Shown here one piece after another: positions 2,376 through 64,000 of a stretch of 64,000 bases of DNA (within the stretch, counting starts at the first letter, position 1; each line of letters begins with the position of its first letter). The position numbers were made by a program, and so were the translations under genes. The stretch lies in the sequence record MN850601.1. One strand, 5' to 3'. This stretch comes from Escherichia phage inny. Under the pieces are notes generated by a model. The model had not been told where the DNA came from. It ran no database searches and was given only the letters and a program-made list of their open reading frames with translations.

Positions 2376-5251
2376 TGTCAAGAATTAAGCACAGAATTGA
2401 CAATGTTTTTCAACTGATCGATGGACATATTCAGTTCTTAGATCGTAATACAGGTTTAACTGTAGATCCTACAGTGCAACACTATGTATTAAACCCACAA
2501 AACGTTCTAGCTAATAACAGACACTTTATAAACTGGACTGCTCAAGAAGGGCAACCAAACGGGGATGCTACAACAGAAGGTCAATCCGTGCTTATTCTTG
2601 GTTGCGCTTATGCATACCTAGCTTCCGGCGATACAAAGTATTTAGACTCTGCTAAAAAATATTGGCAAGCCTATATAGATTACTTCTTTGGTGGTCAACC
2701 TATCCCAGATCCGCCAGCAAAGTATCGCCCTAACTGGATTATTAACGGTAAAGAACCACGTCTTGCACATTATCCTCTTACAGATGATGGCTACCCTACA
2801 CACGGAGGTTTTAAGGGTAGCTTAATGACGTGGACTAACGGTAGAACAGTTATTCCTCATGGTGCTCCACATTGGGGAGAATACCTTGACAAAGCATGGT
2901 TTGCTTTTAATGGTAATCTAGGATGGAACTCTGTAAACGCTACAGTATATGCTGTTAATGCAGATGGTACAACAGATTGGTCTAAGAAGGGAGATCAATG
3001 GGATGTTGATTGGATCATTGATCGCCTAGGACGTAAAGTTGATTGGGATGGAAATATCTTAGAAGAAGGTTTTCCAACATCTCAATACGGAACAGTTCAA
3101 CTAAAAAATACTTCTGTAAATGGTACATATAAATTTAACTACGCGACTTGTAACCCTGTTGAACACGGTGGTTATTTAATGGAGCGTAACACTATGTGGC
3201 ATAACAGACCAGTTAACGTTCCGGTAGAAATGGGTTTTCAGGATAATGCGTCAGATGCTGAAACTTGGTGGTGTGATGCTAATTACCTGATGTACCAAAT
3301 TACAGGAGAAAGAAAATATTGGCTATGCTGGCAGTCTTCACTGTTAGTGTGTCAAGATTATTCAAACATTGATATGTTTGATAAATTCTTCCGTAAGTCT
3401 ACATATGCAACTATTCCGTTTACAGATGGCATCTCTTACGATTATTCGTATCCATCTACAGCAATACCTAAATATTCAAGAGATACTTTAGGTTATATTG
3501 TTATTAGACAAGATGTTGCTGCTCAAACAACATTAGAACAGCAATCCATTTGGTTTAAAGTTGATCAGAACTCTAAGTTACGAGTTCAGTTCCAAGGTGT
3601 AGATGACGCAGGACATGGTATTCTTTTCCGTCCAGAATTGGAGCTAAGTAAGACCAAAGATGAAAATAACACAGTAACTTACCGTTGTGGCTTACCATTA
3701 GGTACAGCTAATATGACAAGCATGGATATTCCATTATCCAGCTTTATGAGAAGTACCCCTCCAAATGGTGGAACATATATTATCGCAGATCCGCGAATTA
3801 TTGTTGACTGGGGTGACAATACTGTGGTACAATTTAAGTATGTAACAGGTATTACTGGAACTAATGATGACCAGATTGTTACTGCATCAATGGATACGGA
3901 TGGTGGTGTCACTGTTGGTTTTTGGTTAACCCCTACATCAAAAGCTAATGTTAAGTCTATCACATATAGAACATATGAAGATGACTTTAACATGACTATC
4001 ACGGATGCTCAAGGTTGGAGATGGTGGGCTATGCTACCTAAAACGCAAGGAGCATGGAGTACGAAGACTTTATCAGCCTCTGATTTTAAGTTAAGTGCTT
4101 ACCAGCCTAATCATCCAGAAACAGATCCTAAACCTTCAGCAATAAATCTTACTGCTGTAGATCAGGTAAATTTAGTTCTCGATACGGCTCCTGTCAATGG
4201 TTTAACAGGAACAATAGATTTCTATTGTATTAACGATGTGCCTGAAAGATATTCGTCATCTTCTGGTGATGATTATACCATGTACTTCCGTATCACTGTA
4301 CAGGCTTCAAGTCCTCATACTGCTAAGTTAGGTGATTGTACTATTATTGACTATAAGTTAAATAGTCTTAATTACACACCAGGAATAATTCCATTCTCTA
4401 ATATTAGTGACCCAAACACTGCATTGTATGATGGCTGGCGTGGTATTCCATACCCAGGATACCAATACCCTTCCTTATACTGTTTTGCAGGTAGAGATAT
4501 TGATTGGACGCGTTTAAATAACAGTATCAATTTCTTGTATGATTCTCAAATGTGGTTTTATAACACATTCGATCCTGTGATGCCTGGGCCTATGGCACAA
4601 GCGTATGTGTGGGATCGTTGGGATGCAAGAAAATACGGTGAACCAAATACGTTCACAATGAAACACTGGAATGAAAAAGCGTGGGATGGTTATGAAGCTC
4701 GTGCATTCTACTGTGCTTGTCATGCTGTATACGAACTTGTACAAAGAGGAGAAACACCTCCTGAAAAACTAGTAACAGTTTGTAAAAATTGGATCAACTA
4801 TCTTAAATGGTTCCAAGACAATAATGATGGAAGAACACCAACTATCTTTAACCCAGATGGTACAGTTCTTGCGCCTATAGATGACTTTACTAGTCATATG
4901 TCTGCACTGTTTATGGCGGGTTGTTCAATCATGGGCTTGGCAGGTTATGATTCACAAATTCCAAACATTGGTATTGTAGCAGACAGATGTTTTGATCTGA
5001 TTCAGCAAAACTATATTGTGCTTTCCCCTAACCATCCGATGAATGGTTCCTGGAGTGTTGCACCACGCCCAGATTCAGATAACGGAATGTTCTTTGGTTT
5101 CCATGCTGGAGAACTATTACGTGGTTTTGGTTTATATGCCTTGTATCGTAAACTAAACCCTCAAAACGCTTTACCAATTTTGGATAATAGTAACATACCA
5201 ACACTAACTGTTCTAACTATGAATGATATTAGTGTTGATGTAACCAAATAA
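2375..5251 (+). CDS. large baseplate-associated protein, possible (alpha/alpha)6 glycosidase-like domain
   Basis: 958 aa; segment LGCAYAYLASGDTKYLDSAKKYWQ reminiscent of alpha/alpha-toroid glycoside hydrolases; embedded between wedge and J-like genes. Confidence 0.4.
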   Translation: MSRIKHRIDNVFQLIDGHIQFLDRNTGLTVDPTVQHYVLNPQNVLANNRHFINWTAQEGQPNGDATTEGQSVLILGCAYAYLASGDTKYLDSAKKYWQAYIDYFFGGQPIPDPPAKYRPNWIINGKEPRLAHYPLTDDGYPTHGGFKGSLMTWTNGRTVIPHGAPHWGEYLDKAWFAFNGNLGWNSVNATVYAVNADGTTDWSKKGDQWDVDWIIDRLGRKVDWDGNILEEGFPTSQYGTVQLKNTSVNGTYKFNYATCNPVEHGGYLMERNTMWHNRPVNVPVEMGFQDNASDAETWWCDANYLMYQITGERKYWLCWQSSLLVCQDYSNIDMFDKFFRKSTYATIPFTDGISYDYSYPSTAIPKYSRDTLGYIVIRQDVAAQTTLEQQSIWFKVDQNSKLRVQFQGVDDAGHGILFRPELELSKTKDENNTVTYRCGLPLGTANMTSMDIPLSSFMRSTPPNGGTYIIADPRIIVDWGDNTVVQFKYVTGITGTNDDQIVTASMDTDGGVTVGFWLTPTSKANVKSITYRTYEDDFNMTITDAQGWRWWAMLPKTQGAWSTKTLSASDFKLSAYQPNHPETDPKPSAINLTAVDQVNLVLDTAPVNGLTGTIDFYCINDVPERYSSSSGDDYTMYFRITVQASSPHTAKLGDCTIIDYKLNSLNYTPGIIPFSNISDPNTALYDGWRGIPYPGYQYPSLYCFAGRDIDWTRLNNSINFLYDSQMWFYNTFDPVMPGPMAQAYVWDRWDARKYGEPNTFTMKHWNEKAWDGYEARAFYCACHAVYELVQRGETPPEKLVTVCKNWINYLKWFQDNNDGRTPTIFNPDGTVLAPIDDFTSHMSALFMAGCSIMGLAGYDSQIPNIGIVADRCFDLIQQNYIVLSPNHPMNGSWSVAPRPDSDNGMFFGFHAGELLRGFGLYALYRKLNPQNALPILDNSNIPTLTVLTMNDISVDVTK

Positions 5252-42312: not shown

Positions 42313-43473
42313 TTAGTAAGAACGACCACCAAACACATACTCTGTGTAGTTTTTACGTTCTTTGTTTTTAATAACAACTTCAATGTTGTTGCCTTTATCA
42401 TCGGTGAACACAAAGTGATAACCGTCACCACCCATTGTACGGATGTGTTTTTCATCATACGTCAGCAAGATACGGTCTACACCCCAGTAGTAGTCACCTT
42501 CTTCATCTTTGTCTTCTACTGTAACGACCCCTTCCATTTCAGGAAGATGCTCCTCTCCTAGCTTATGGTCTACAGCTACAACATAACGATTACCGCTAAA
42601 CAAACCCTGTGCTGTCATACCGTCAATATCGGTATCTGCCGAAACATCTCCTGTACGATCTACACCGTTAACTTTCAGGAGTTTAACTTCTTTTGCAGCA
42701 TAGCGGTGTTCAGTAATACTGATACCCATTAATGCAAGTGCATCAGAGAATTTGTCATTAGGGTAACGGTTAAGTTCTTCTACTAGTGACTGAACAATAT
42801 CAAAGTTCAAGTCCACGGAAAGATTATAAAGCGTTTCAAAATCTGGTAAAAAGGCTTTGTTCTCCAGATTTTTAGCCAGATAGTCATCCATAGTAGCTTT
42901 AGGTAGTTTCTTATAGCTAAAACTGTAGAAAATACGGCTAGGACGATTACGCAAAAATTCTGATACATAACCATCATTTTTAGTCAATACAAACAGCTTG
43001 TCATAGCCACCTACACCATCCAGCAGAGTAAGCAAACCATCCTGTGCATCTTTTTCAGCATACAGTTTATCAAATTCATCGATCATAATCATCACAGGTT
43101 GTGTGATTTTAGACATAAAATTGATAAAGCCTTCGCCATTAAAAGCACTACCGATAGAAATAGTAGGAATACCCATTTCACGAAGAGCAGAAGACAGCAT
43201 TTTAGCTTGCAAAGTTTTACCACTACCCTTCGTACCCTCAAGGAGAACACCTGTGTTTTTACCTTTGCGGCTAAGGAACGTCTTGATAATACGTTCTGAT
43301 TTATCATCAGTATCACCGTATGTTACTGAAGGGACTTCCATATCGTTTTTAGGATACAGGAAGAACTCACCACTTTGAGTAACACCTACACCAAAAGTTC
43401 CTGCTGGAATTTCTTCAATATCTGTACCAGATTTCTGACGCAGGAAGATTTGATTGCCGAATACTGTAAACAT
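42313..43473 (-). CDS. AAA+-type ATPase, paralog A
   Basis: 386 aa; Walker A GTKGSGKT, Walker B VMIMIDEFDK, sensor-like LFVLTKND; colinear with 59019..60146. Confidence 0.6.
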   Translation of the reverse strand: MFTVFGNQIFLRQKSGTDIEEIPAGTFGVGVTQSGEFFLYPKNDMEVPSVTYGDTDDKSERIIKTFLSRKGKNTGVLLEGTKGSGKTLQAKMLSSALREMGIPTISIGSAFNGEGFINFMSKITQPVMIMIDEFDKLYAEKDAQDGLLTLLDGVGGYDKLFVLTKNDGYVSEFLRNRPSRIFYSFSYKKLPKATMDDYLAKNLENKAFLPDFETLYNLSVDLNFDIVQSLVEELNRYPNDKFSDALALMGISITEHRYAAKEVKLLKVNGVDRTGDVSADTDIDGMTAQGLFSGNRYVVAVDHKLGEEHLPEMEGVVTVEDKDEEGDYYWGVDRILLTYDEKHIRTMGGDGYHFVFTDDKGNNIEVVIKNKERKNYTEYVFGGRSY

Positions 43474-55445: not shown

Positions 55446-56549
55446 TTAATCAATTTTTTCACTAACAAAATTTTTTATATTTTCATAATCTTCTAGATTA
55501 TATGTTTCTGTATATCCATCCGGTAGCCACTCTTTTAAGCATAAAGAGCGGTTAAAACATTTTTTAACTTCTTTCTCCAAAGCGAAAATAGTAGCATAAT
55601 CTCCACTGAAACTGTCAAGTAGATAATGCTTAAACATGCTGTTTTTACTTTGCTCTTTGATTCTACGATCAATATCTACCGTAATCCCTGCTTTCAAGCA
55701 GGTATAAAACGGAGAAACCAATTTTTGTATATAAAAACACCAATTTGATTGTTGGTTTTCGGTGTACGGAATTTCTTTTACTCTTTTTTGCTTTTTAACA
55801 TTCATCTCTGTAAAGGGTAATGCTTTATAGAGTGATGTTTGACCGTGGCGTGTCTCTACAGAAAGAACTCCCATATCAACAAACATATTTATAATATTGC
55901 GTACCTGACGATCACTAACCATTCCAATATTAGCTAATGTTTTTTGAGTAGCGTAACATTCTTGCCCTTGTTCATTGAATCCAGCTATATAGCTATAGAT
56001 TTCAACGGCTGGCAGTGTAGCGGTGTATTCATTACCAGATGGTGAATACCATTTTTTAAACATTTTCCATTCTGTAGGGGGAAGCTGTTCAGGAACAGCT
56101 TTAACAGTAGATACTTGCTCTGTCTGTGGCTTTTCTGCATTTACAGAGGCTTTCGCTTCTCTTGGGGGAGTAATATGTGCATCTGTGAGAGGTAGCGCAC
56201 GTAATTTTAAAGGACGTTTTGGAATTCGTTCTCCGACCTCTTCTAAAAGACCGATTTTAATCATAATACCAATCAATTCATTAACTGTCTTACGGCTACA
56301 GCTACAAACTTTACTTAACTTCGTTTGTGTTTCAAAACATATTCCCCCTGATTTATCCCAATCTGAAACATAGCAATATAATTTTTGCATTTCTACACTA
56401 AACTTAACTTTTCCACCACCAACACTTGAGGAGTAGATAAACTCAATCTCACAAAAGTAATGAGGTATATTCAAAGTTCGGTCTTTAATTTCTCCTGTTT
56501 GTTTATCAACATACTGGTATTTTTCACGAATCAATTTAATTTTAGACAT
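55446..56549 (-). CDS. hypothetical protein with two helix-turn-helix-like segments (start at ATG with AAGGAG RBS)
   Basis: Segments TVNELIGIMIKIGLL and ATQKTLANIGMVSDRQVRNIINMFVDMGVL resemble winged-helix recognition regions. Confidence 0.45.
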   Translation of the reverse strand: MSKIKLIREKYQYVDKQTGEIKDRTLNIPHYFCEIEFIYSSSVGGGKVKFSVEMQKLYCYVSDWDKSGGICFETQTKLSKVCSCSRKTVNELIGIMIKIGLLEEVGERIPKRPLKLRALPLTDAHITPPREAKASVNAEKPQTEQVSTVKAVPEQLPPTEWKMFKKWYSPSGNEYTATLPAVEIYSYIAGFNEQGQECYATQKTLANIGMVSDRQVRNIINMFVDMGVLSVETRHGQTSLYKALPFTEMNVKKQKRVKEIPYTENQQSNWCFYIQKLVSPFYTCLKAGITVDIDRRIKEQSKNSMFKHYLLDSFSGDYATIFALEKEVKKCFNRSLCLKEWLPDGYTETYNLEDYENIKNFVSEKID

Positions 56550-56586
56550 TAGAATAATCTCCTTATAAATCACGCTTAATGCGCTA

Positions 56587-56769
56587 CTAAAGTGAATGAG
56601 GATCATTTACCTTTTTTTGTTTGATATTCTCTGCTGCTTCAGTAATGATTTCTAACATCAAATCACTGACCATAATTTGCCTTTTCTTGGCTTCAGCAAA
56701 TAAAACCTTGAAGATTTCAGGGTCAACGTGTAGGTAAGTGCGCGGAATTGGTTTCTTAGTTTCGCTCAT
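56587..56769 (-). CDS. small ribbon-helix-helix-like protein (start at internal ATG with AAGGAG RBS)
   Basis: 60 aa; PRTYLHVDPEIFKVLFAEAKKRQIMVSDLMLEII resembles RHH/Arc-type regulators. Confidence 0.35.
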   Translation of the reverse strand: MSETKKPIPRTYLHVDPEIFKVLFAEAKKRQIMVSDLMLEIITEAAENIKQKKVNDPHSL

Positions 56770-58568: not shown

Positions 58569-59006
58569 ATGAGTAAAACAAACGCAATCGCAGATAAAGC
58601 AACTGATGTACTTCTGAACATGGTTAACGTCACTATTCAAACAATGAGTGATGTTGTAGAGTTTGGAAAACAACAAATTCCAGAAGTAATTCATCAATTA
58701 TTAATGTGGAAAGCAGTATCCGCAGGTTTATGGCAACTTTTTAGTATTTGCTTTATGTTTATTACTTTTATTGTTGTGCGGAACCTCATAAAAGCAATTA
58801 AAGATAAAGAATGTCTGTGGTCACGAGATCGCTATGGTGAGGTATCTGCTTTGCCTATTGTTGGTCTTGTTGTCTGTGCTTTCTTTTTCTTTTTAGGATT
58901 TGTTATTTTCTTTTCGAATTTCGATTGGCTAAAAATTATTATTGCACCAAAAGTGTATCTGATTGAATTTGCTGCTGATTTAATTCGTTCATCTCAACAA
59001 AGATAA
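58569..59006 (+). CDS. membrane protein
   Basis: 145 aa with two or three hydrophobic helices; GAGGAATAAAGA RBS. Confidence 0.45.
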   Translation: MSKTNAIADKATDVLLNMVNVTIQTMSDVVEFGKQQIPEVIHQLLMWKAVSAGLWQLFSICFMFITFIVVRNLIKAIKDKECLWSRDRYGEVSALPIVGLVVCAFFFFLGFVIFFSNFDWLKIIIAPKVYLIEFAADLIRSSQQR

Positions 59007-59018
59007 AAGGGGTTTAAA

Positions 59019-60146
59019 ATGAAATACACGATTTATGGTGATATTGTAAGTGTAAATAAAGATATGGGCGTGGAATCTAACTATCTTCCACCTGGATTCT
59101 ATACTGTTAGTCGTGATCCCCTTGGCAATTACTTTTTAAGCCGTGGTAATCTAACAGGTGTACCGGATGTTCTGTATGGTGAAACAGAAAAACGAGCAAA
59201 TCACGTTATTCGTACATTCCATCGCCGGAGTGCACAAGGTAAAAACACAGGTTTGCTCCTGACAGGCACTAAGGGCAGTGGTAAAACTATGTTAGCCAAA
59301 CTCATTAGTCGTGACCTTGTAGAAGAAGGTATTCCAACTATTATGGTTACTCAAGCCTACAGCGATGCTAATTTCATTGAACTTATTAGCAAGATCACCG
59401 ACAAAGCAGTGATTATTTTTGACGAGTTTGATAAAGTATATGAGAAGAAACAAGATCAAGAAGCACTTCTCACTTTGTTAGATGGTACTGGCAGTGGTAA
59501 TAAACTGTTTATTCTAACTAAAAACAGTGGCTTTATCTCTGAATTCTTTCTAAATCGTCCTAGTCGTGTGTTTTATAATTTTAATTATGATAAAATCTCA
59601 CTAGAAACTATGATTGACTATTTAGATAAAAACCTGGATAACAAAGCACACTTTGATAATTTCCAAAGGCTTTGGGATGTAAGTTTAGAGTTGTCCTTTG
59701 ATGTGATCCAAGGTATAGTAGAAGAACTTAATTTCTACCCTGATTTATCCTTTAAAGAATGCATCTCTATGATGGGCGTTTCTTTGGGTGGTGGTAATAA
59801 GTGGGATATCAGCAGCGTTGTTATTAATGGGAAACTTCAGAAAGTTAGCTGGGTATCTAGTTGGCATAACTTCACACCTGCAATCTTTTTAGGTGGCTCG
59901 TGCACACTAGACGTGTACTTGTCATCTCCAAGTGATGCAGACTCTAAAGAAGCCCTTGCTAATAGCTCTTACGTGGTTTTTGATGATGAAGGAGATGCTC
60001 GAATTCCATTGAATGCGACAAAAATGAAAGCAGATCTTATTACAGGCGGTAAAATCGTTGTGTTTAGTGATGATCCAGAAGATTCTTTCCGTATTGTTCT
60101 GGAACCAACTATCACCAATGGTGCAACTTTGGCAAGCGTGTTTTAA
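59019..60146 (+). CDS. AAA+-type ATPase, paralog B
   Basis: 375 aa; Walker A GTKGSGKT, Walker B VIIFDEFDK, LFILTKNS; colinear with 42313..43473 over the first ~250 residues. Confidence 0.6.
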   Translation: MKYTIYGDIVSVNKDMGVESNYLPPGFYTVSRDPLGNYFLSRGNLTGVPDVLYGETEKRANHVIRTFHRRSAQGKNTGLLLTGTKGSGKTMLAKLISRDLVEEGIPTIMVTQAYSDANFIELISKITDKAVIIFDEFDKVYEKKQDQEALLTLLDGTGSGNKLFILTKNSGFISEFFLNRPSRVFYNFNYDKISLETMIDYLDKNLDNKAHFDNFQRLWDVSLELSFDVIQGIVEELNFYPDLSFKECISMMGVSLGGGNKWDISSVVINGKLQKVSWVSSWHNFTPAIFLGGSCTLDVYLSSPSDADSKEALANSSYVVFDDEGDARIPLNATKMKADLITGGKIVVFSDDPEDSFRIVLEPTITNGATLASVF

Positions 60147-60163
60147 GTAAGCCAGCAAATAAA

Positions 60164-60186
60164 AACCCGCTCCGGCGGGTTTTCTT
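60164..60186 (+). terminator. rho-independent terminator
   Basis: AAAAACCCGC-TCC-GGCGGGTTTTCTTGTAT. Confidence 0.6.
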
Positions 60187-60220
60187 GTATTGATGCCAGA
60201 TTTAATAAGAGGAGTAATAG

Positions 60221-61393
60221 ATGACAGCACCAAAATCATGGGAACAATATAAAGAAGAATTAACACCCCTTGCTAAAAATCGCAATATTCAAATCCGGGG
60301 TTATGTTGGTGAATGGAAAGGGAACAAGACTAAACTTAAGCTATCTTGCCCTAAACATGGAGAGTGGAACACCACGAACATTAATGATTTTAAGAAGGGA
60401 CGTGGTTGTCCTATCTGTTCTGGTAAGAAGCCGTTAACATGGGAAACAGAATTGCCGATCTTGGAAGAGATAGCACAGAAGAGGGGGTATCAGGTGTTAG
60501 GGTACGTGGGAGAATGGAAAGGGAATAAAACAAAACTTGATTTGTTGTGTCATTGTGGTAATAAATGGGATACTACAAGTATTAACAATTTTAAACGTGG
60601 TAGCGGTTGTCCACAATGTAAGAGGGAGAGACAAACAATGTCCGACGATCAACATATTGCAGATTTCTTTTCTACAGGGGAATTTAAGGAAGGCACTATC
60701 TTCACCAATACAGGGAAACGTAACAAGCGTGATGCAGTATGGATGGTTGAGTGTCCTGTTTGCTCCCATGATGAATATGTTCAAGCAGGTGTTTGTGATG
60801 GTAAATTTTACTCTGCAGGACATAACCTTAAACAAGGGTATATTCCGTGTCGTTGTGGGAACTATCAGTATACAGAAGACCAGATCACCTATAGGGTAAA
60901 AAAGGAAGTAGAAGGGAAAGGGTATGTCTGGGTAGATTGGATTACCAAACCCTCTTCTATAGGTAAGTTTAAATATCTTTGTCTTGTGCATGGTGAGCAG
61001 ATAGGGAGTGCTCGTAATTTATTAAGCCTCGGTCAAGGTTGTCCACAGTGTGCTGGTCATAATCAACAGCAATTATATATTAATATTGTTAAAGATAATG
61101 ATATTATAGTTGCTCTTAAGTTTGGTATATCTAAAGATAGCGATAGACGATTAAACGGTCAAAATAGCCGTAATCTGTTTTTTATGGAGCGTATTTGTTT
61201 ATATGATTTTAGCACAGTGAAACAATGTAGGGCTGCTGAAAGAGCTATAAAGAAAAAATTAAAAACTGGTATTTTAACGGCAAGAGAGTTGAAAGATGGT
61301 TATACAGAAACAGTAAGTGTTTCTGATTTGGAAAATCTTCAAAAAATTATTACACAATATGGTGGCAAATTAGTATACAGTAAGGAGATGTAA
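60221..61393 (+). CDS. zinc-ribbon repeat protein with C-terminal T5orf172/GIY-YIG-like region (tentative)
   Basis: Repeated module Y(V/L)GEWKGNKTKL..C..HG.W.TT.IN.FK.G.GCP.C three times (CPIC, CPQC, CPQC); C-terminus IVALKFGISKDSDRRL. Confidence 0.5.
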   Translation: MTAPKSWEQYKEELTPLAKNRNIQIRGYVGEWKGNKTKLKLSCPKHGEWNTTNINDFKKGRGCPICSGKKPLTWETELPILEEIAQKRGYQVLGYVGEWKGNKTKLDLLCHCGNKWDTTSINNFKRGSGCPQCKRERQTMSDDQHIADFFSTGEFKEGTIFTNTGKRNKRDAVWMVECPVCSHDEYVQAGVCDGKFYSAGHNLKQGYIPCRCGNYQYTEDQITYRVKKEVEGKGYVWVDWITKPSSIGKFKYLCLVHGEQIGSARNLLSLGQGCPQCAGHNQQQLYINIVKDNDIIVALKFGISKDSDRRLNGQNSRNLFFMERICLYDFSTVKQCRAAERAIKKKLKTGILTARELKDGYTETVSVSDLENLQKIITQYGGKLVYSKEM

Positions 61394-61945
61394 ATGCGGA
61401 TTACTGATAAGTATGTGTTCTTCTTCTCGGCAAAAGATGAATTTAGCAACTGGTATCTATCATCTTTTATTGAACCTTTAGCTCCCAAGTATAATAATTC
61501 TATTACAAGTTCTGTTGAATTTACTTGTGTGGAACAATATATGATGTGGAGAAAAGCATGTTTGTTTTATGATTACAACATTGCATCTTCTATTTTAACC
61601 GGAGATCTAAGATATACAGGAGAAAAAGAACAGGCATATTATAAGCGACTAGGTAGATTAGTTAAAGATTACGATGAAGCTACTTGGACTTCTTTACGGG
61701 AGAAGATTGTCAAGCGTGGTTTGTATCTTAAATACACACAAAATGAAGATCTCAAAAATAAACTTATCGCTTACGCAGATAAGGAGTTCGTAGAGGCAAG
61801 CCCTTATGATTCTATTTATGGTATCAAAATGGGAATGTGGGATCGTGATGTGGAAAATAAGGACTGTTGGAAAGGACAAAATCTTTTAGGAAAATGGCAT
61901 ACAGACCTTGCTGTTTATCTAAAAGCACAATCTGATATTTCCTGA
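61394..61945 (+). CDS. NADAR-domain protein (YbiA/DUF1768-like)
   Basis: 183 aa; FFFSAKDEFSNWY, EQYMMWRKA, LVKDYDEATW, EFVEASPYDSIYGIKMG and GQNLLGK are colinear with E. coli YbiA; TAAATG coupling. Confidence 0.8.
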   Translation: MRITDKYVFFFSAKDEFSNWYLSSFIEPLAPKYNNSITSSVEFTCVEQYMMWRKACLFYDYNIASSILTGDLRYTGEKEQAYYKRLGRLVKDYDEATWTSLREKIVKRGLYLKYTQNEDLKNKLIAYADKEFVEASPYDSIYGIKMGMWDRDVENKDCWKGQNLLGKWHTDLAVYLKAQSDIS

Positions 61946-62160
61946 TATTTTGAAAATTTTTATTTTTATAAAAAGGGGTGTGGGTTTCATGTACGGAAAT
62001 CCACCCTCTGAATAATATATCCAGAGTAAATATTATTCTGTACTCTGTTAATAAAGTATTTAATTTGTTTGTTTGACTATGGTATCTGATCTTTAAAAGA
62101 CATACTATCTCTTAACTACTACTTATAACAGAACAGTAAAATCATTTTTATAAAAAGTAC

Positions 62161-62365
62161 AAAATTATTTAAAGTTTTTACAGATTTTTGGGTACAAATT
62201 TTGAAAATGAAAAGTTCAAGTTTGGTCAAAATTATTTAAAGTTTTTGTACGTATTTCTGTCCAGATTTTGAAAATGAAAACTTCAATTTTTTAAAAATTC
62301 CCCAGTTTATTTAAAGTTTTTTTGCCTTTTTCCGTAGAAAAATCAAAAATGAAAAGTTCAATTTC
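62161..62365. repeat. three imperfect tandem direct repeats (~67-78 bp period)
   Basis: Each unit holds ATTATTTAAAGTTTTT and GAAAATGAAAAGTTCAA cores (units at about 62161, 62228, 62306); AT-rich, no ORF. Confidence 0.6.
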
Positions 62366-62385
62366 GTGTTTTTATAGGTGTGTTA

Positions 62386-62497
62386 ATGAGAATCATTTTC
62401 GTTTGTAAATGAGAATCATTATCATTTAACTATGTAAGTGATAATCATTCTCAGTAAGAGAATGAGAATCATTAGCAAATGAGAATTTTCTCATTTA
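62386..62497. promoter_or_regulatory. array of Fur-box-like palindromes (candidate iron-responsive operator cluster)
   Basis: AATGAGAATCATT at 62386, 62409 and 62462, GATAATCATTCTC at 62441 and AATGAGAA-TT-TTCTCATT at 62480; 62409..62425 matches the Fur box core at 15 of 16 positions. Confidence 0.5.
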
Positions 62498-62731
62498 GAG
62501 AATAACGCGCAGGGGCGGTGTTTGTCTCGCGCTCCCGTGTCCCCTCGCCATACAATAAGAATAGCATAACCAACAACAAAAGCAAGCGATTATTTTTATC
62601 TTTACATTTCTTTACAAATTTATTTTAGACGAGCTACCGGCGATCAACCTTCCAACCAGTGCCCCCTGGTATGTTAGCCCCGCCTTTACGCCGTGGGGGT
62701 GGCGTTTCCTCTTCTGTATGTAAAACAGTAT

Positions 62732-62750
62732 AAGCCCGATCCCTGGGCTT
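62732..62750. terminator. bidirectional hairpin terminator
   Basis: AAGCCC-GATCCCT-GGGCTT; T-rich on plus side (ATTATTTTTTGTTTT) and directly downstream of minus-strand ORF 62758..63024. Confidence 0.45.
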
Positions 62751-62757
62751 GTCAAGA

Positions 62758-63024
62758 TTATTTTTTGTTTTCTTGCCAGGATAGGACACCTAACCAAAAA
62801 TACATGTCGCCCCGCGCCCCTGGCGGGATCTTGCTTTCCCCGCCGCCACTACAAGCCCATAGATAACCATTAGCGAACGGATCAAAATGATCTATTTCTT
62901 CCACCTTATGATCGCCCAGGTTGAGAACGGTTTCAACCTTTAAGCCCGTTGCGCTTGCTACCTGGTGCACCGTGCCGCCTTGCCAGCCTAATGAGTGCAT
63001 GAGGTGTAGAGTAGTATTTGTCAT
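62758..63024 (-). CDS. hypothetical protein in GC-richer segment
   Basis: 88 aa; AAGG-type RBS; codon usage visibly GC-richer than the phage core. Confidence 0.4.
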   Translation of the reverse strand: MTNTTLHLMHSLGWQGGTVHQVASATGLKVETVLNLGDHKVEEIDHFDPFANGYLWACSGGGESKIPPGARGDMYFWLGVLSWQENKK

Positions 63025-63137
63025 GGTATCGCCCTTTCTTTGATGTGCGCCCTGGTTGGCGCGGTAGAAAGATAATAGCCCTTTCCTTTATAGATAGCAA
63101 GCAAAAAAAAGAAATGAAAAAAAGATTAAAAAAGGGG

Positions 63138-63166
63138 TTGACGTTCCTCACCTGGTAGCGTATTAT
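63138..63166 (+). promoter_or_regulatory. candidate sigma70 promoter
   Basis: TTGACG, 17-nt spacer, TATTAT, preceded by A-rich tract. Confidence 0.4.
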
Positions 63167-63293
63167 TCATCTTGTCGAGGGGGGCGAGGCACAACGACAA
63201 TAAACAAAAGGAGGGCGCAATGTAGGACGGGCAAAGGTGAGGATCTCCATAATCCACCGTCACAATAACATTACTTATAAAAGGTTGATAACG

Positions 63294-63389
63294 ATGATCA
63301 AGAAAGAAAACAGCTTGACGGTTGGAACGATTAACGCTATCATTCTTGCCGTTCCATTTTGGATTGTAGTTGCGGTTATTATTTTTTAA
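63294..63389 (+). CDS. small hydrophobic peptide (not in ORF track)
   Basis: 31-aa ORF MIKKENSLTVGTINAIILAVPFWIVVAVIIF with AAGG upstream. Confidence 0.3.
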   Translation: MIKKENSLTVGTINAIILAVPFWIVVAVIIF

Positions 63390-63397
63390 AAATATTC

Positions 63398-63425
63398 TTG
63401 ACAACGTTTTTTAATCTGATAAGAT
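63398..63425 (+). promoter_or_regulatory. candidate strong sigma70 promoter
   Basis: TTGACA, 16-nt spacer, TAAGAT, about 50 nt upstream of ATG at 63478. Confidence 0.45.
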
Positions 63426-63477
63426 GTATCACATAGGGCGGCAATAGTGCCGCTCATAACAGAAGAGAGAAATAATC

Positions 63478-63750
63478 ATGGCATCATATAGCGCATCAAT
63501 GATCGTAATGGGCATCACTGGTAAACCTATGCGCGGTGGCGGATCTTTCGCTAACATCAATATTGATGGGCGTTTATCCCTGGATGCAGCGATCACCGTG
63601 GCACGGGAAACATTTAAAAAAGAATGTAATTTCAATAAACAAGATTATCTCGGTTTCGCTATTGAAAAAACCGCGCGATTTGTGGATTATAAAAGCCCGA
63701 AAATGATCGACACTACACTAAAAGCGCAAGATGTAGCGTTTTTGCTTTAA
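63478..63750 (+). CDS. hypothetical protein
   Basis: 90 aa; GAGAGAAATAATC RBS; downstream of TTGACA promoter. Confidence 0.45.
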   Translation: MASYSASMIVMGITGKPMRGGGSFANINIDGRLSLDAAITVARETFKKECNFNKQDYLGFAIEKTARFVDYKSPKMIDTTLKAQDVAFLL

Positions 63751-63753
63751 GTC

Positions 63754-63781
63754 TTGACACTGAAAAATAATTTGGTAATAT
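63754..63781 (+). promoter_or_regulatory. candidate strong sigma70 promoter
   Basis: TTGACA, 16-nt spacer, TAATAT, about 55 nt upstream of ATG at 63839. Confidence 0.4.
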
Positions 63782-63838
63782 ATACTCCATAAGGCGGGAA
63801 ATGGTTTCCCGCCAGGCCATCAAAGAAAGGGTAACACA

Positions 63839-64000
63839 ATGAGCAAGCAAATCAATACTATCATGTTAAACCTGGTATCTTTCCGCGACGACGTGAAAAA
63901 TCTTCCACGTGATGCAGTGGATGCACGGATCGAAAGCTATCGCTCACAGATCGCAACGCTACCGCTAAAACGTGATCAACATGCCGCTAATATGATGCTT
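63839..64000 (+). CDS. hypothetical protein, 3' partial (runs off window end)
   Basis: ATG at 63839 with AAAGGG RBS; frame open to window end. Confidence 0.4.
   Translation, partial: MSKQINTIMLNLVSFRDDVKNLPRDAVDARIESYRSQIATLPLKRDQHAANMML

Follow-up and report, generated by a model that had tools for sequence, protein, structure and literature searches.

What does the gene at positions 60221 to 61393 of a stretch of DNA from Escherichia phage inny (sequence record MN850601.1) encode, and does its place between an AAA+ ATPase gene and a NADAR gene tell us anything of its role? The window in which we addressed this question is the whole stretch of DNA that was analysed, 64,000 nucleotides in length.

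The locus and its setting

The source phage is a Justusliebigvirus (phi92-like) coliphage of the subfamily Stephanstirmvirinae; the Justusliebigviruses are phi92-like myoviruses with genomes of ~146 kb. The region of the open reading frame (ORF) is matched in 61 phage records, the majority of them Justusliebigvirus, and its DNA is 99.7-99.9% identical to that of Escherichia phages vB_EcoM_ZYD, Nernie, outra and Paula. Matching records annotate the product either as 'hypothetical protein' or as 'endonuclease', the phi92 copy being gene 222, and a literature search judged by title and abstract found no paper on the gene. The ORF, termed the endonuclease ORF below, lies among the following features.

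59019-60146, plus strand: AAA+ ATPase gene (PF00004, PHROG 2376), upstream context outside the element
60162-60183, plus strand: terminator-like hairpin (AAAACCCGCTCCGGCGGGTTTT with a T-rich tail) 3' of the ATPase gene, from a terminator scan
60210-60214, plus strand: ribosome-binding site AGGAG of the endonuclease ORF, 6 nt upstream of its ATG
60221-61393, plus strand: endonuclease ORF, 390 aa plus stop, from the ORF list
61382-61387, plus strand: ribosome-binding site AAGGAG of the NADAR gene, inside the last endonuclease codons and annotated in phi92
61394-61945, plus strand: NADAR gene (PF08719, E = 2.3e-36), downstream context outside the element

The phi92 record annotates an identical AGGAG for gene 222. 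An earlier note on this DNA had labelled the ATPase gene 'AAA+ paralog B', and the label is apt, since the window holds a second ATPase copy at 42313-43473 on the minus strand, 47% identical over 254 aa. On the other side, the NADAR protein scores 109.8 bits with TIGR02464, the YbiA-type N-glycosidase model, against a cutoff of 73.7. The endonuclease stop codon (TAA, 61391-61393) abuts the NADAR ATG at 61394, and across four alleles of the genus the 3'-terminal endonuclease bases that lie over the NADAR ribosome-binding site show a single-base difference, in the last codon. Given the abutting stop and start, and a NADAR ribosome-binding site that lies inside the endonuclease 3' end, it is plausible that the two genes are co-transcribed. 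Rfam gave 0 matches within 59000-64000, and the endonuclease protein matched no PADLOC and no NCBIfam family.

Four CapR-type zinc-finger modules

The N-terminal part of the protein had previously been described as three tandem modules. The repeats are real, well beyond what chance would give, and they are supported by alignment, but the count was wrong: Pfam resolves four modules, with PF21817 (the CapR homology domain) matching the whole protein at E = 5.9e-43 in four stretches. DUF4379 and DUF723 also match the module array. The four module segments were each scanned singly against Pfam, and we took their register from the Pfam profile, because a MAFFT alignment of the four, which we discarded, had placed module 3 out of register.

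60236-60430, plus strand: CapR-type module 1, residues 6-70 (PF21817, E = 4.7e-12)
60431-60628, plus strand: CapR-type module 2, residues 71-136 (PF21817, E = 1.1e-16)
60629-60862, plus strand: CapR-type module 3, residues 137-214, divergent and with a longer spacer (PF21817, E = 5.1e-14)
60863-61063, plus strand: CapR-type module 4, residues 215-281 (PF21817, E = 3.6e-4 alone)

Scanned alone, module 4 scores 21.1 bits, which is under the PF21817 gathering score of 24.2. The segment YVGEWKGNKTKL is present only twice, at residues 28 and 95 of the protein, and G.GCP[IQ]C three times, at residues 60, 127 and 271; in the module of the third of these, a G.GCPQC, the upstream segment reads YVWVDWITKPSSIGKFKY. 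The module missed earlier is the divergent one at residues 137-214, which carries CPVC...CRC and lies between modules 2 and 4. Pairwise identity is 51% between modules 1 and 2 and 30% between modules 1 and 4, and an AlphaFold2 model gives all four a common helix-strand-strand-strand-helix-helix order (in module 1, helix 7-20, strands 24-29, 38-43 and 47-49, and helices 54-58 and 66-69).

Each module carries a set of four putative zinc ligands: C43/H46/C63/C66 in module 1, C110/C112/C130/C133 in module 2, C178/C181/C210/C212 in module 3 and C254/H257/C274/C277 in module 4. The CxxC...CxC pattern of module 3 is that of CapR itself. Among 64 homologs, and wherever the module concerned is present, no ligand is less than 90% conserved and some do not vary: C130 and C133 of module 2 are invariant, and conservation of 90% or more holds for C110 of that module, for C178, C210 and C212 of module 3 and for C254, C274 and C277 of module 4.

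What kind of finger would these residues build? The modules had been called zinc ribbons, and they are indeed repeated modules of a zinc-binding type, but the family to which they belong is CapR/DUF723/DUF4379, treble-clef-like according to Pfam and the literature. A zinc ribbon has two zinc knuckles, each borne on a beta-hairpin. In the model, by contrast, DSSP has the second ligand pair where a short helix begins (C63/C66, for instance, precede helix 66-69), and Pfam describes DUF4379 as 'probable treble clef'. From these two observations together, we tentatively favour treble-clef-like fingers over classical zinc ribbons as the modelled fold. A profile search of the PDB weakly linked one module to ribosomal protein bL31 (E = 0.029). 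Furthermore, PHROG 559 ('HNH endonuclease') matches residues 8-184, so that HNH-type enzymes use the same modules too.

A C-terminal T5orf172 nuclease domain

The remainder of the protein forms a single further domain.

61064-61390, plus strand: T5orf172 (GIY-YIG superfamily) nuclease domain, residues 282-390 (PF10544)

The loose likeness of this region to T5orf172 and GIY-YIG-type domains, noticed earlier, holds up. PF10544 matches residues 291-349 with 22.8 bits, a marginal pass of its gathering score of 20; MUG113, a member with T5orf172 of the GIY-YIG clan, matches the domain weakly; and PHROG 681 ('endonuclease') matches residues 6-389 at E = 3.4e-87. By its profile matches the protein is in the T5orf172 branch of the GIY-YIG clan, and outside the canonical GIY-YIG family PF01541, which gave no match at E <= 1. 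A search of the PDB with Foldseek, using the isolated C-terminal model, returned GIY-YIG nucleases and so supports a GIY-YIG-type alpha/beta fold, with EF2693, I-TevI, a GIY-YIG restriction enzyme and UvrC lower in the list. The same search with the full-length model gave no significant match, since a multi-domain model dilutes the signal, and a profile search of the PDB by sequence gave none for the nuclease domain. The coexistence of this domain with a zinc-finger-type array bears out the suggestion that the protein is probably nucleic-acid-binding or nuclease-associated.

Residues Y286, K300, G302, R310, Q314, E340, G360, E363 and T364 are invariant in the 64 homologs, which reach down to ~25% identity. 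Y286 is the 'GIY' tyrosine, and K300-x-G302 (K300-F301-G302) is the T5orf172 version of 'YIG'. It is important to note that the motif is atypical, with Lys in place of the second Tyr and Gln in place of the helix-1 His. Aligning the C-terminal profile by hhalign with the I-TevI catalytic domain, the query sequence of which we verified against T-even phage records, revealed no similarity, so that we assigned the catalytic residues from motif order and fold. The order of Y286, R310, E340 and E363 is as expected for a site of the I-TevI Y6, R27, E75 type, and we infer that Y286, R310 and E340/E363 are the catalytic Tyr, Arg and Glu.

The full-length AlphaFold2 model has a pLDDT of 93.5 and a pTM of 0.59, which we take to mean well-folded domains that have no fixed mutual arrangement. 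At E <= 0.001 it has 219 matches among predicted viral structures, under names such as 'CapR homology domain-containing', 'zinc-ribbon', 'treble clef zinc finger' and 'GIY-YIG domain-containing'.

Proteins of this architecture have been described. T5orf172 homing endonucleases with repeated CapR/DUF723 fingers, and recombination between the repeats, have been reported (PMC10448857); CapR, DUF723 or DUF4397 fingers, often repeated, are carried by 87% of 229 T5orf172 homing-endonuclease genes (PMC10448857, Barth 2023), and recombination among the repeats duplicates, deletes and swaps fingers (PMC10448857). CapR, a protein of the Vibrio satellite PLE, binds DNA through a zinc finger and descends from the N-terminal domains of T5orf172 homing endonucleases of ICP1 (PMC8096241), and gel shifts show that its DNA binding needs its four cysteines (PMC8096241, Netter 2021). 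The nuclease activity of Odn, a T5orf172 protein of ICP1, depends on a conserved glutamate (PMC8263062). By its domain content, the protein studied here is predicted to be an ordinary member of this already-described class, the T5orf172 homing endonucleases whose CapR zinc fingers are repeated; we found phi92-like phages neither in the text nor in the supplements searched of Barth 2023 (PMC10448857).

An insertion slot that is filled, empty or otherwise occupied

The gene is free-standing, and it is present or absent among genomes that are otherwise syntenic. In phiWec188 (Phapecoctavirus) the slot is empty, the ATPase gene being followed by a 121-aa gene, a 62-aa gene and NADAR. Klebsiella phages phi1_175008 and KP2025 have an empty slot as well, as probably does Citrobacter phage Tr1, for which the match to the empty-site probe is partial (54% covered, in two pieces). 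An N6/N4 DNA methylase occupies it in the Klebsiella phage FKP3. Elsewhere in the subfamily it is occupied by CapR-T5orf172 genes of 329-486 aa, those of Phapecoctavirus phiWec179, nepoznato and nieznany encoding 337, 394 and 486 aa. All 55 of the 55 full-length matching Justusliebigvirus records carry the endonuclease gene and, since every E. coli record of the genus does so, a gene-less target is not visible in the phage's own genus.

When the empty and occupied junctions are aligned, the insert falls downstream of the ATPase terminator and upstream of the next gene's ribosome-binding site. The hairpin AAACCCGCTyCGGCGGGTTT is common to gene carriers in two genera (including nepoznato), and the hairpin of phiWec188 is different. 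In a megablast search, DNA homology with Phapecoctavirus begins at query base 1145, which is position 60163 of the window, at the hairpin. Thus the hairpin, being shared and standing where the homology starts, seems to travel with the cassette.

Module turnover, mosaicism and selection

The number of modules varies among alleles: VEcB has 3 (329 aa), the window and phi92 have 4, and alia and PaulScherrer have 5 (465-467 aa). The joints of the deletions fall inside the repeated GEWKG motif, and the VEcB allele is without module 1. Ancestry is also mosaic. Against phi92, of the same genus, modules 3 and 4 are 40% and 45% identical and the nuclease domain 94%, whereas against nepoznato, of another genus, modules 3 and 4 are 76% and 70% identical and the nuclease domain 46%.

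Rates of change differ sharply between the gene and its neighbour, the ATPase protein being 99.7-100% identical in 54 records and the endonuclease protein 67-100%. Within the genus, the nuclease domain has a dN/dS of 0.15-0.42 at a dS of 0.10-0.24, and the ATPase gene a dN of 0 at a dS of 0.06-0.13. A dN/dS below 0.5 at a flank-like dS indicates that the nuclease domain is kept by selection and is about as old, within the genus, as its flanks. Between genera, divergence of the endonuclease (57%) is comparable to that of the ATPase (64%) and NADAR (59%), a likeness to the flanks that led us to reject the idea that the entire gene moved recently from one genus to another and that makes much of its history compatible with vertical descent. 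From these comparisons, only the terminator, the leader and modules 3-4 look to have been exchanged between genera.

The life cycle of homing endonucleases predicts decayed copies, and none of the candidate alleles was convincing. The truncation in vB_EcoM_01 coincides with a run of N in the assembly. In KKP 3954 the ATPase gene is frameshifted too, making a sequencing error likely, and ECGD1 differs by a single 1-nt frameshift of uncertain reality.

A probable homing endonuclease, and the alternatives

Our reading of these results, to which we give a probability of roughly 0.68, is that this is a free-standing gene for a homing endonuclease, one that belongs to the T5orf172 branch of the GIY-YIG superfamily. 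The four tandem CapR-type modules would be arranged as beads on a string, each holding one zinc ion, and would jointly read an extended DNA target, with the C-terminal T5orf172 domain cutting the DNA nearby through an active site of conserved Tyr, Arg and Glu. When a phage with the gene and a relative without it infect the same cell, the break would be repaired from the gene-carrying genome, and the cassette of terminator hairpin, leader and ORF would thereby be copied into the slot that follows the ATPase terminator, ahead of the next gene. Recombination among the repeated modules would alter their number and swap them between alleles, so that target specificity shifts.

It is important to note that the intact gene, the purifying selection and the fixed state within the genus fit a retained useful function as well as they fit ongoing homing. 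The gene could accordingly descend from a homing endonuclease and have been domesticated: its product would still bind or cut DNA at specific sequences, and the gene would be kept for the good of the phage rather than spreading selfishly, with possible roles in excluding co-infecting relatives, in attacking satellite or host DNA (as Odn does) or in repression at a binding site (as by CapR and I-TevI). Such a derivative has precedents in CapR (PMC8096241) and Odn (PMC8263062), and would account for an intact gene in essentially all E. coli Justusliebigvirus records, for a nuclease domain under purifying selection, and for the integration of the gene into the operon, its 3' end carrying the ribosome-binding site for NADAR. 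Nevertheless, we consider it rather unlikely: relatives that are syntenic in other respects are without the gene, which is thus dispensable for this type of phage, its DNA-binding array changes much faster than the flanks do, as expected of a selfish nuclease that chases new targets, and it is not known to act on a satellite or on any other specific target.

That the T5orf172 domain is catalytically inactive, leaving the protein as a DNA-binding factor only, is very unlikely in our view. The first prediction for T5orf172 was one of DNA binding (cited in PMC8096241), and both the marginal Pfam score and the atypical active-site motif, with its Lys for the second Tyr and Gln for the helix-1 His, point that way; yet the Tyr, the Arg and both Glu are invariant across the 64 homologs, the dN/dS stays below 0.5, and Odn, a proven nuclease, is also without the helix-1 His/Tyr (PMC8263062).

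Joint action with the NADAR enzyme on modified (e.g. ADP-ribosylated) DNA, a role at which the earlier note saw a hint in the co-transcription of the two genes, finds no support and seems highly improbable: stop and start abut with no terminator between the genes, and phage NADARs remove ADP-ribose from DNA (PMC11825919), but phiWec188 keeps NADAR with the slot empty of the endonuclease, the adjacency is specific to Justusliebigvirus (two genes intervene in Phapecoctavirus), homologs turn up in 526 phage records amid many unrelated gene settings (e.g. ICP1, RaK2, Aeromonas and Vibrio phages), and PADLOC gave no match. NADARs of phages can counter DarT1 (PMC11825919). Should the adjacency have a meaning, we would speculate that a counter-defence gene hitch-hiking beside a homing endonuclease is more likely than a shared role.

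Returning to the homing endonuclease, a bolder version of it may be stated, which we consider quite improbable as a whole. The CapR array might be a DNA reader programmable by recombination, each module reading a few bp, and the cassette, which is fixed in the genus and provides the NADAR ribosome-binding site, might also spread NADAR by co-conversion. If so, the alleles of 3, 4 and 5 modules, together with the swapped modules 3-4, all found in nearly identical phages, would be a running series of specificity changes, and the link with NADAR, a probable counter-defence gene, would be one of hitch-hiking and not of shared biochemistry.

Comparison with known systems

No new class of biology is opened by this gene. 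What it offers is a better annotation, as a T5orf172 homing endonuclease with a four-module CapR array, for dozens of phi92-like coliphages that are therapeutic candidates; the position behind the ATPase terminator can likewise be marked as a site of variable insertion. Furthermore, the alleles of 3, 4 and 5 modules, along with the empty site of phiWec188, make a convenient E. coli system for asking how arrays of CapR modules read DNA and if T5orf172 enzymes home at all.

Among known systems, the most distant comparison is with SLX1 and HIGLE, eukaryotic structure-specific repair nucleases with a RING/PHD partner domain, with which the protein shares 14-16% identity and only the fold. I-TevI and the Seg proteins of T4 share the homing lifestyle proposed here and the fold superfamily. 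They differ in having a canonical GIY-YIG domain, which in I-TevI is N-terminal so that the domain order is reversed, and they have no detectable sequence similarity to our protein; their DNA-binding domain consists of a minor-groove helix and a helix-turn-helix, the single zinc finger of I-TevI being a linker.

Odn (ICP1 Gp88, PMC8263062) resembles the protein in a T5orf172 domain that is without the helix-1 His/Tyr and keeps the Arg and Glu. Odn, however, is a proven nuclease with a RepA_N DNA-binding domain and serves as an anti-satellite weapon, whereas the array here is of the zinc-finger type. A second T5orf172 gene in the window, at 55446-56606, has a design closer to that of Odn. With CapR, the repressor of the capsid operon encoded by the Vibrio cholerae satellite PLE (PMC8096241), the protein shares the PF21817 zinc-finger domain that is named after CapR. 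CapR, as we understand PMC8096241, comprises the DNA-binding part only, acts as a repressor and belongs to a satellite, whereas here four modules are joined to T5orf172 in a lytic phage. We therefore rejected the possibility that the gene is a CapR ortholog, given its conserved T5orf172 domain and its place in a lytic phage; the two share a domain only.

The closest known relatives are the CapR-T5orf172 homing endonucleases of the ICP1 type (e.g. Gp165 and Gp174; PMC10448857), which have the same N-terminal repeated CapR/DUF723 modules and C-terminal T5orf172 domain, are likewise free-standing, and undergo recombination and swapping of modules. In a tblastn search the ICP1 genes match the endonuclease protein with 27.8% identity at E of about 1e-23. 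The differences lie in the low sequence identity, in the four modules present here, in the lineage, which here is that of Stephanstirmvirinae coliphages rather than of a Vibrio phage, and in the insertion site: the sites emphasised in PMC10448857 adjoin structural, terminase or ribonucleotide-reductase genes, and the site here does not. Judging from the alleles compared above, change in module number and swapping of modules, as in the Vibrio phages, also operate in Stephanstirmvirinae coliphages.

Conserved and variable neighbours of the CapR-T5orf172 gene

The window encodes a pair of paralogous AAA+ ATPases that share 47% identity over 254 aa:

42313-43473, minus strand: AAA+ ATPase gene
59019-60146, plus strand: AAA+ ATPase gene, adjoining the CapR-T5orf172 gene

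Among 54 related phages the product of 59019-60146 is 99.7–100% identical, with a dS of 0.06–0.13, and such near-invariance of the protein despite synonymous differences indicates very strong purifying selection. The slot 3′ of this gene's terminator is variable in the Stephanstirmvirinae: some members have a gene for a CapR-T5orf172 endonuclease there, some one for an N6/N4 DNA methylase, and in others the slot is empty. Its positions in two relatives are:

3057-3779: slot in Klebsiella phage FKP3 (our sequence L012)
2933-2977: slot in phiWec188 (our sequence L013)

Four records (MG065645, MG065689, MG065639 and MG065656) are titled 'Campylobacter phage', with C. jejuni as the stated host; they are 93–94% identical to the E. 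coli phage locus of the window and equal in genome size. Their Campylobacter host label looks doubtful.

Repeats and transcription-unit boundary

The NADAR gene is followed by a non-coding gap of ∼800 nt containing repeats; terminator-like and promoter-like elements lie at 62680-62760:

62144-62486: three AT-rich direct repeats of ∼70 nt (72% identical; spacings 67 and 75 nt), then three GAGAAT-rich repeats of 29 nt
62680-62711, plus strand: overlapping cluster of G+C-rich, terminator-like hairpins
62750-62732, minus strand: hairpin near that cluster
62755-62727, minus strand: predicted near-consensus sigma-70-like promoter, TTGACA-17-TATACT

The repeat region, which has no match in Rfam, looks iteron-like and may be an origin or a regulatory region; phage alia carries a 'repeat_region' annotation at the equivalent position. 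Together, the hairpins and the promoter-like sequence at 62680-62760 mark a border between divergent transcription units.

A second T5orf172 gene

The window carries one further gene of this kind:

55446-56606, minus strand: T5orf172/MUG113-domain gene, 386 aa

At the C-terminus the encoded protein shares 31% identity with the CapR-T5orf172 protein, and its N-terminal part contains two HTH_36/DnaD-like winged-helix domains, matching PHROGs of phage replication initiators. In this fusion of an initiator-type DNA-binding domain to a T5orf172 nuclease, the product resembles ICP1 Odn in design (PMC8263062).
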